Below, one piece after another: positions 43,104 to 43,597 of a stretch of DNA of 64,000 nt. Every line of letters starts with the position of its first letter. Within the stretch, counting starts at the first letter, position 1. Both the position numbers and the translations under genes were made by a program. The notes under the pieces are model-generated. The model did no database searches. It was not told the origin of the DNA and was given only the letters and a program-made list of their open reading frames with translations. Location: sequence record PQ666539. One strand, written 5' to 3'. The stretch is from Shigella phage sb1.

Positions 43104-43597
43104 AAAGTTTTAATAACCTCTATAATATCGTCTTTAGAAAGACCGTTAATTAAAATATGATGTTCAGCAGGAGATTTAGAAATTTTAAAGCATGCCTAAA
43201 CATCTTCTGCCATATCCGATGCGCTACGATTTGGATTACTAATTCCAAGAAGATGTTTTCCCGTTAAAGGATTAACGATGATATAGCATTTACAGTTGTT
43301 GATATGAACATTAGGTTGAGTCTGATTAATGAACACATCACAATCATATTTCGCAAGCTGATTTTCTAAAAAGACTTTCATCTACTCAACCTCATCAGGA
43401 AGCATATCAAGGGCTTGCTCAAGACGACGATTTCGATATTCTTTAATGGTCGTTTTCCGCTTGACTTGCTTAGCTAAATCTTTCTTAAGATCGGTGATAT
43501 ATCCAACTCGACGATTTCCTTTAAATACAGAAATCCCATCTGTAGTATCACCGTATGCTTCAACGACCATCTCAGTAGTAATAAGCTGTAAATCCAT
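43094..43597 (-). CDS. alc: Alc (host transcription unfolding/termination protein), interrupted by in-frame TAG at 43382-43384 and 43196-43198 (minus strand)
   Basis: Three same-frame pieces (71, 61 and 33 aa) plus the two stops total 167 codons, the T4 Alc length as I recall it. Confidence 0.65.

Follow-up and report, generated by a model that had tools for sequence, protein, structure and literature searches.

Does an in-frame TAG codon in the alc gene of a T4-like phage carry a biological signal, or does it reflect the state of the sequence in which it is written? The question is raised by codon 135 of the alc frame in a stretch of 64,000 nucleotides from Shigella phage sb1 (sequence record PQ666539; the window hereafter is this whole stretch), in which an initial annotation, made from the letters alone, had called alc and two TAG codons within it, which would suggest an amber mutant, or else suppression or recoding. 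The call of the gene and the in-frame TAG stood up to the analysis presented here, but the implied significance did not. The TAG at codon 135 is very probably a nonsense codon of non-biological origin, or at least one on which selection never acted, and represents one hit of a layer of G:C>T:A changes.

The window is a Tequatrovirus (T4-like) segment, and about 500 T4-like phages match it in megablast searches, the best-listed T4-like records being 98.0-98.7% identical to it in the alc region. Over 51 kb its identity to Shigella phage sb2 is ~96.5%, and the two are colinear from gp15 to gp37. For the survey of premature stops, the 73 sb2 CDSs of unchanged length were mapped onto the window. 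For the analysis of private substitutions, about 43 kb was compared with five relatives (sb2, pSs-1, Ec_YwIITB1, KNP5 and Ec_MI-02), and a substitution was taken as private where the window differs at a site at which at least 4 relatives agree. In sb2 (PQ666540.1; L003 6740-9377, L004 8696-12565), gp18 (tail sheath) and gp34 are annotated in pieces, and at the gp34 break the window and the other relatives read through, with TAC where sb2 has TAA. As sb2 has local problems of its own, gene-level comparisons need several references.

Several other features of the window were noted in these comparisons. The alt (ADP-ribosyltransferase) locus consists of two tandem paralogues (27925-32040, minus strand), as in sb2 and pSs-1. 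The nrdB and td genes (45277-46455 and 49329-50189, respectively, both on the minus strand) are contiguous and intronless, as in sb2; the nrdB gene of T4, unlike that of the window, carries a group I intron with I-TevIII, and T4 td also carries a group I intron. The terminal codon of gp51 (22053-22055, plus strand) is CAA versus TAA in sb2, and the next codon is a stop, which makes the protein one residue longer. Furthermore, a 1-bp insertion relative to sb2 (T, 36205) lies beside the start of a small hypothetical gene (35840-36206, minus strand), the frame of which is lost as mapped; the insertion may be genuine, affecting the start codon or a run of T, or may stem from an edge effect of the alignment.

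Identity of alc and its two TAG codons

Translation of the minus strand from 43600 to 43094 gives MMDLQLITTEMVVEAYGDTT...DEVE(TAG)MKVFLEN...SASDMAEDV(TAG)ACFKISKSPAEHHILINGLSKDDIIEVIKTLCN(TAA), in which the terminal TAA occupies 43096-43094. Translation, alignment and the Pfam and PHROG profiles agree in identifying this frame as alc (Table 1). When both internal stops are read as Glu, the repaired Alc is matched by PF17527 'Phage ALC protein' over residues 2-167 (E = 7e-88) and by phrog_1253 (PHROG 1253; E = 6.5e-79), and with the stops masked its aligned identity is 93% to T4 Alc and 96% to five close relatives. In addition, the order rnlA - alc - pseT.3, all on one strand, agrees with the mapped annotation of sb2, KMB22 and T4. 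The initial annotation had placed the TAG between SASDMAEDV and ACFKISKSPAEHHILINGLSKDDIIEVIKTLCN, with a stop at 43094-43096, had counted it as the second of two in alc, and had proposed an alignment to T4 Alc as the check; it was right on each of these points, as the TAG is codon 135 of 168, the flanks and the final stop are as described, an earlier TAG is found at 43384-43382, and the alignment to T4 Alc confirms the gene and places the TAG at a conserved Glu.

Codon-by-codon comparison with KMB22 and sb2 shows how the interruption is built. Codon 135 aligns to residue 134 in T4 numbering, and its TAG differs from GAG by a single G>T on the coding strand, that is, C>A on the plus strand at 43198. 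GAG is found at both of the stop positions in T4 and in five close Tequatrovirus relatives. Because of this conserved GAG, and because PF17527 still matches with E = 7e-88, the TAG at codon 135 is a true interruption of a recognisable alc. The unbroken frame of about 167 aa that characterizes the Alc family is not found here, since TAG stands at codons 73 and 135; as written, alc yields only a 72-residue N-terminal fragment, and is either a pseudogene or an erroneous sequence. The gene also carries four private missense changes, at positions (R64, A70, R117 and Q156) that are invariant across T4 and its relatives in the alignment.

The TAG variant was found in none of the four sequence collections searched. 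In the phage collection, none of the 448 phage records matching an 81-mer around the codon 135 TAG is identical to it, the best being 98.8% identical (80/81; megablast), and TAG-bearing 27-45-mers have no exact match in IMG/VR, the JGI metagenomes or the GTDB genomes. The GAG version of the same sequence was found in 3 IMG/VR contigs.

Table 1. Location of alc, its stops and private changes, and other premature stops in the window
Feature	Position	Strand	Remarks
alc (inhibitor of host transcription), 168-codon frame with two TAG	43094..43600	-	Translation, alignment, Pfam/PHROG profiles
Second TAG, alc codon 135	43196..43198 (43198-43196)	-	GAG (Glu) in relatives
First in-frame TAG, alc codon 73	43382..43384	-	GAG (Glu) in relatives; also a single G>T
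alc private missense changes R64L (43410), A70E (43392), R117L (43251), Q156K (43135)	43135..43410	-	All G>T or C>A on the coding strand
pseT.3 (spanin-like, overlaps alc 3' end), TAA at codon 29	43017..43019	-	GAA in relatives; G>T
rnlA (RNA ligase 1), just upstream of alc	43662..44786	-	Three premature stops, all G:C>T:A
rnlA, TGA at codon 132	44391-44393	-	
rnlA, TAA at codon 183	44238-44240	-	
rnlA, TAA at codon 374	43665-43667	-	
terL premature stops	2975-2977, 3461-3463		
gp22 premature stops	10042-10044, 10312-10314		
gp23 (major capsid) premature TAA	11617-11619	+	Sole stop not G:C>T:A relative to sb2 (TTA>TAA)
First alt paralogue, only in-frame TAG outside alc	29449-29451	-	GAG>TAG
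nrdA, adjacent TAA TAA codons	48397-48402		
gp32 premature stop	53210-53212		
Window-wide unselected G:C>T:A burst	1..64000	.	About 1.5% of conserved G:C sites; 31 stops

Premature stops and G:C>T:A changes across the window

Two amber codons in one gene had been singled out as notable, but 21 other genes contain a further 29 premature stops, and all three stop codons are represented among these. In total, 22 of the 73 mapped CDSs contain 31 premature stops (24 TAA, 4 TGA and 3 TAG), the genes concerned being terS, terL (2), gp22 (2), gp23, uvsY, gp51, gp27 (2), gp29, gp48, alt, pseT.3, alc (2), rnlA (3), nrdA (2), gp32, gp34 (4), gp35, gp36 and three small ORFs. Essential genes are among those interrupted, including terL, gp22, gp23, gp27, gp29, gp48, gp51, gp32 and gp34-36. 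Relative to sb2, the stops arose as GAA>TAA (16), GGA>TGA (4), TCA>TAA (4), TAC>TAA (3), GAG>TAG (3) and TTA>TAA (1), so that 30 of the 31 are G>T or C>A, i.e. G:C>T:A. As to the remaining one, in gp23, the ancestral codon may have been TCA, a single reference covering this region. An in-frame TAA was also seen at codon 11 (19075-19077, plus strand) of a uvsW.1-like small ORF (19045-19275); it was left out of the 31 because a 3-bp deletion at 19252 sets the ORF apart from its sb2 counterpart. Since stops of all three types fall in the major capsid protein, the terminase, the single-strand DNA-binding protein, the baseplate and the tail fibres, a phage with this sequence is not viable and could not be propagated.

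The same substitution class dominates the private changes of the window as a whole. G:C>T:A accounts for 219 of the 625 private substitutions (35%), the reverse class A:T>C:G for 44, and the rate is 1.46% of the 15,029 conserved G:C sites, with the two strands affected alike (C>A 111, G>T 108). These 219 changes comprise 155 missense, 25 nonsense, 19 synonymous and 20 intergenic ones, and the coding classes do not differ (chi-square p = 0.13) from the 162 missense, 24.7 nonsense and 12.2 synonymous changes expected under no selection, an expectation obtained by enumerating all possible G:C>T:A changes at those sites. On the other hand, 70-86% of the private transitions in the window are synonymous, mostly at third codon positions, which is the mark of ordinary, selection-filtered divergence; the G:C>T:A changes, unlike this other divergence, bear no trace of purifying selection. 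As a control, singleton substitutions were counted in the same alignment columns, and G:C>T:A made up 8-13% of them in the five relatives versus 36% in the window; the excess is thus private to the window and is confined to one biased class, an excess that the relatives lack. The window is therefore an ordinary T4-like sequence, overlaid with some 170-220 unselected G:C>T:A changes.

Against this background, the alc stop is no more than chance would give, because random G:C>T:A changes at the rate of the window predict 24.7 nonsense codons and 25 are seen in the comparable region. The load of alc itself, 6 G:C>T:A changes in 173 G:C sites (3.5%), has p = 0.042, uncorrected and with 60 genes tested; alc is one of three nominally high genes among these 60, about as many as chance predicts, and is not specifically enriched for such changes.

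The overlay has little structure along the sequence. G:C>T:A changes are present in every 4-kb bin of the window, and are somewhat over-dispersed over distances of 200-1000 bp (index 1.4-1.7); such mild clustering fits uneven coverage but proves nothing. Single-strand damage tracts were rejected as a source, as neighbouring changes are of the same type in 117 of 218 cases, no more often than by chance (P = 0.14). No flanking-base preference was found from -6 to +6, and the trinucleotide effect is weak (chi-square 30.4, 15 df). If modified cytosine had been miscalled systematically, the changes should follow the sequence context; such context-tied miscalling of modified bases was rejected on these two results. 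The classic CCG>CAG signature of oxidation during shearing was likewise rejected, CCG being hit at 6 of 406 sites (1.5%), which equals the average. Long-read-type indel noise was rejected as well, no excess of indels being found: all but three of the mapped CDSs are at reference length, and the gaps relative to sb2 are few and mostly paired.

Source of the overlay and competing readings

The alc TAG is most likely an artefact of sequence quality or DNA damage that holds no biological signal. According to this explanation, ordinary T4-like divergence is overlaid by extra G:C>T:A transversions on both strands and in all genes, and two of these turned GAG into TAG at codons 135 and 73 of alc. The class of the changes, their rate, their freedom from selection, their occurrence in essential genes and their absence from the relatives are shown by the analysis; their cause is inferred, and most likely lies in error or damage in the sequenced template or in the base calls. 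G may have been read or copied as T, for example through oxidised guanine pairing with A, with the template damage becoming fixed by the amplification of few molecules; other candidates are a fault in a base-calling channel in a low-coverage (thin) consensus, and corruption of the record.

It is also conceivable, but unlikely, that the window records a real hypermutated molecule, in which G:C>T:A changes arose in vivo or in the particle through heavy guanine oxidation, a mutator round of replication or an attack of the host on the DNA, and which was captured as a dead or single-molecule genome, e.g. by single-virus or low-input amplification. The overlay consists of substitutions only, is strand-symmetric, belongs to one class and is unselected, as one round of copying of a guanine-damaged template would leave it, and 8-oxoG pairs with A to yield G>T / C>A (PMC3616734). 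However, changes at ~1.5% of all G:C pairs would require a very high lesion load, and no preference for a guanine context is seen, though the formation of 8-oxoG is reported to be context-dependent (PMC3616734). Moreover, sequence alone does not distinguish such a molecule from base-calling error, and we know of no phage-directed system of G>T hypermutation. That the layer is real and stems from massive guanine-directed hypermutation (oxidative or other G-specific damage, possibly by the host or during storage), sequenced as a dead single molecule, is very improbable; if true, it would be the signature of an undescribed DNA-damaging process acting on hypermodified phage DNA.

A reading in which the two TAG codons are genuine ambers of a viable phage, be it a T4GT7-like laboratory strain with cytosine DNA or a naturally occurring alc null, is hardly credible. 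Loss of Alc would permit the transcription of cytosine-containing DNA, alc is non-essential, and T4 strains with cytosine DNA are known to select for mutations in it (PMC12115623); in favour of this reading, too, one 507-bp gene holds two nonsense and four missense changes. However, the same substitution class stops gp23, gp32, terL, gp22 and the baseplate and tail-fibre genes, and, with multiple testing taken into account, alc shows no significant enrichment for it. Deliberate inactivation of alc, as found in laboratory strains with cytosine DNA, was rejected on the same grounds, as essential genes are struck equally. A T4GT7-type strain is further opposed by the backbone of the window, which is not that of T4 but ~96.5% identical to sb2, and by the alc lesion of T4GT7, which is described as a single spontaneous mutation (PMC12115623). 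It is the nonsense codons in essential genes that effectively refute the genuine-amber reading.

There is next to no chance that full-length Alc is made by recoding or suppression of TAG (by way of an alternative code, programmed readthrough or a suppressor tRNA of the phage): the two TAGs do stand in one otherwise intact and well-conserved frame, and TAG-recoded phages do exist in other lineages, but TAG accounts for only 3 of the 31 in-frame stops, against 24 TAA and 4 TGA, TAG still ends 3 genes exactly where they end in sb2, the TAGs replace Glu residues that are conserved in T4 and relatives and are private to this sequence, no selection is seen on the missense changes that accompany them, and ARAGORN finds 0 tRNA genes in the 64-kb window, the T4-type tRNA cluster presumably lying outside the part of the genome that the window covers. 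The preponderance of TAA and TGA, the retention of TAG as a terminator and the absence of tRNA genes from the window led us to reject this reading.

In our reading, the alc TAG is noise that arose through sequencing error, damage to the template or corruption, and is neither recoding nor suppression nor a meaningful alc amber mutant. The main value of the result is that of a quality flag for the window, in which about 1.5% of the G:C positions are unreliable. Other findings in the window should be discounted if they depend on in-frame stops, split genes, pseudogenes or unusual amino-acid changes; this applies to the first TAG of alc and, besides the stops in the structural genes, to those in rnlA, alt, nrdA and gp32. 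The window provides evidence neither for stop-codon recoding in T4-like phages nor for a natural alc-null lineage.

Comparison with known systems

The closest counterpart of the locus is the Alc of T4 (alc, NP_049838.1; PF17527), the inhibitor of host transcription on cytosine-containing DNA, which is the same gene, of the same length and in the same position between rnlA and pseT.3. In the window, however, TAG interrupts the frame as codons 73 and 135, and R64L, A70E, R117L and Q156K alter otherwise invariant residues. Laboratory strains of T4 such as T4GT7 (am42 am56 delta(rIIB-52) / denB alc) likewise have a non-functional alc and amber codons as genetic lesions; however, the amber and alc mutants of T4 are viable on suppressor hosts and carry a few defined lesions in a T4 backbone, whereas in the window 31 stops, comprising TAA, TGA and TAG, interrupt essential genes among others, and the backbone is not that of T4.

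For the overlay, the nearest parallel is provided by the G>T / C>A artefacts attributed to 8-oxoguanine (Costello et al. 2013, PMC3616734; Chen et al., bioRxiv 10.1101/070334), which are, as here, exclusively of the G:C>T:A class, bear no relation to gene function and lack a biological rationale. The published artefact of oxidation during shearing favours the CCG>CAG context, has a low allelic fraction and varies with read orientation (PMC3616734). The changes in the window, in contrast, are free of context bias, stand in the final consensus, and affect about 1.5% of the G:C sites.
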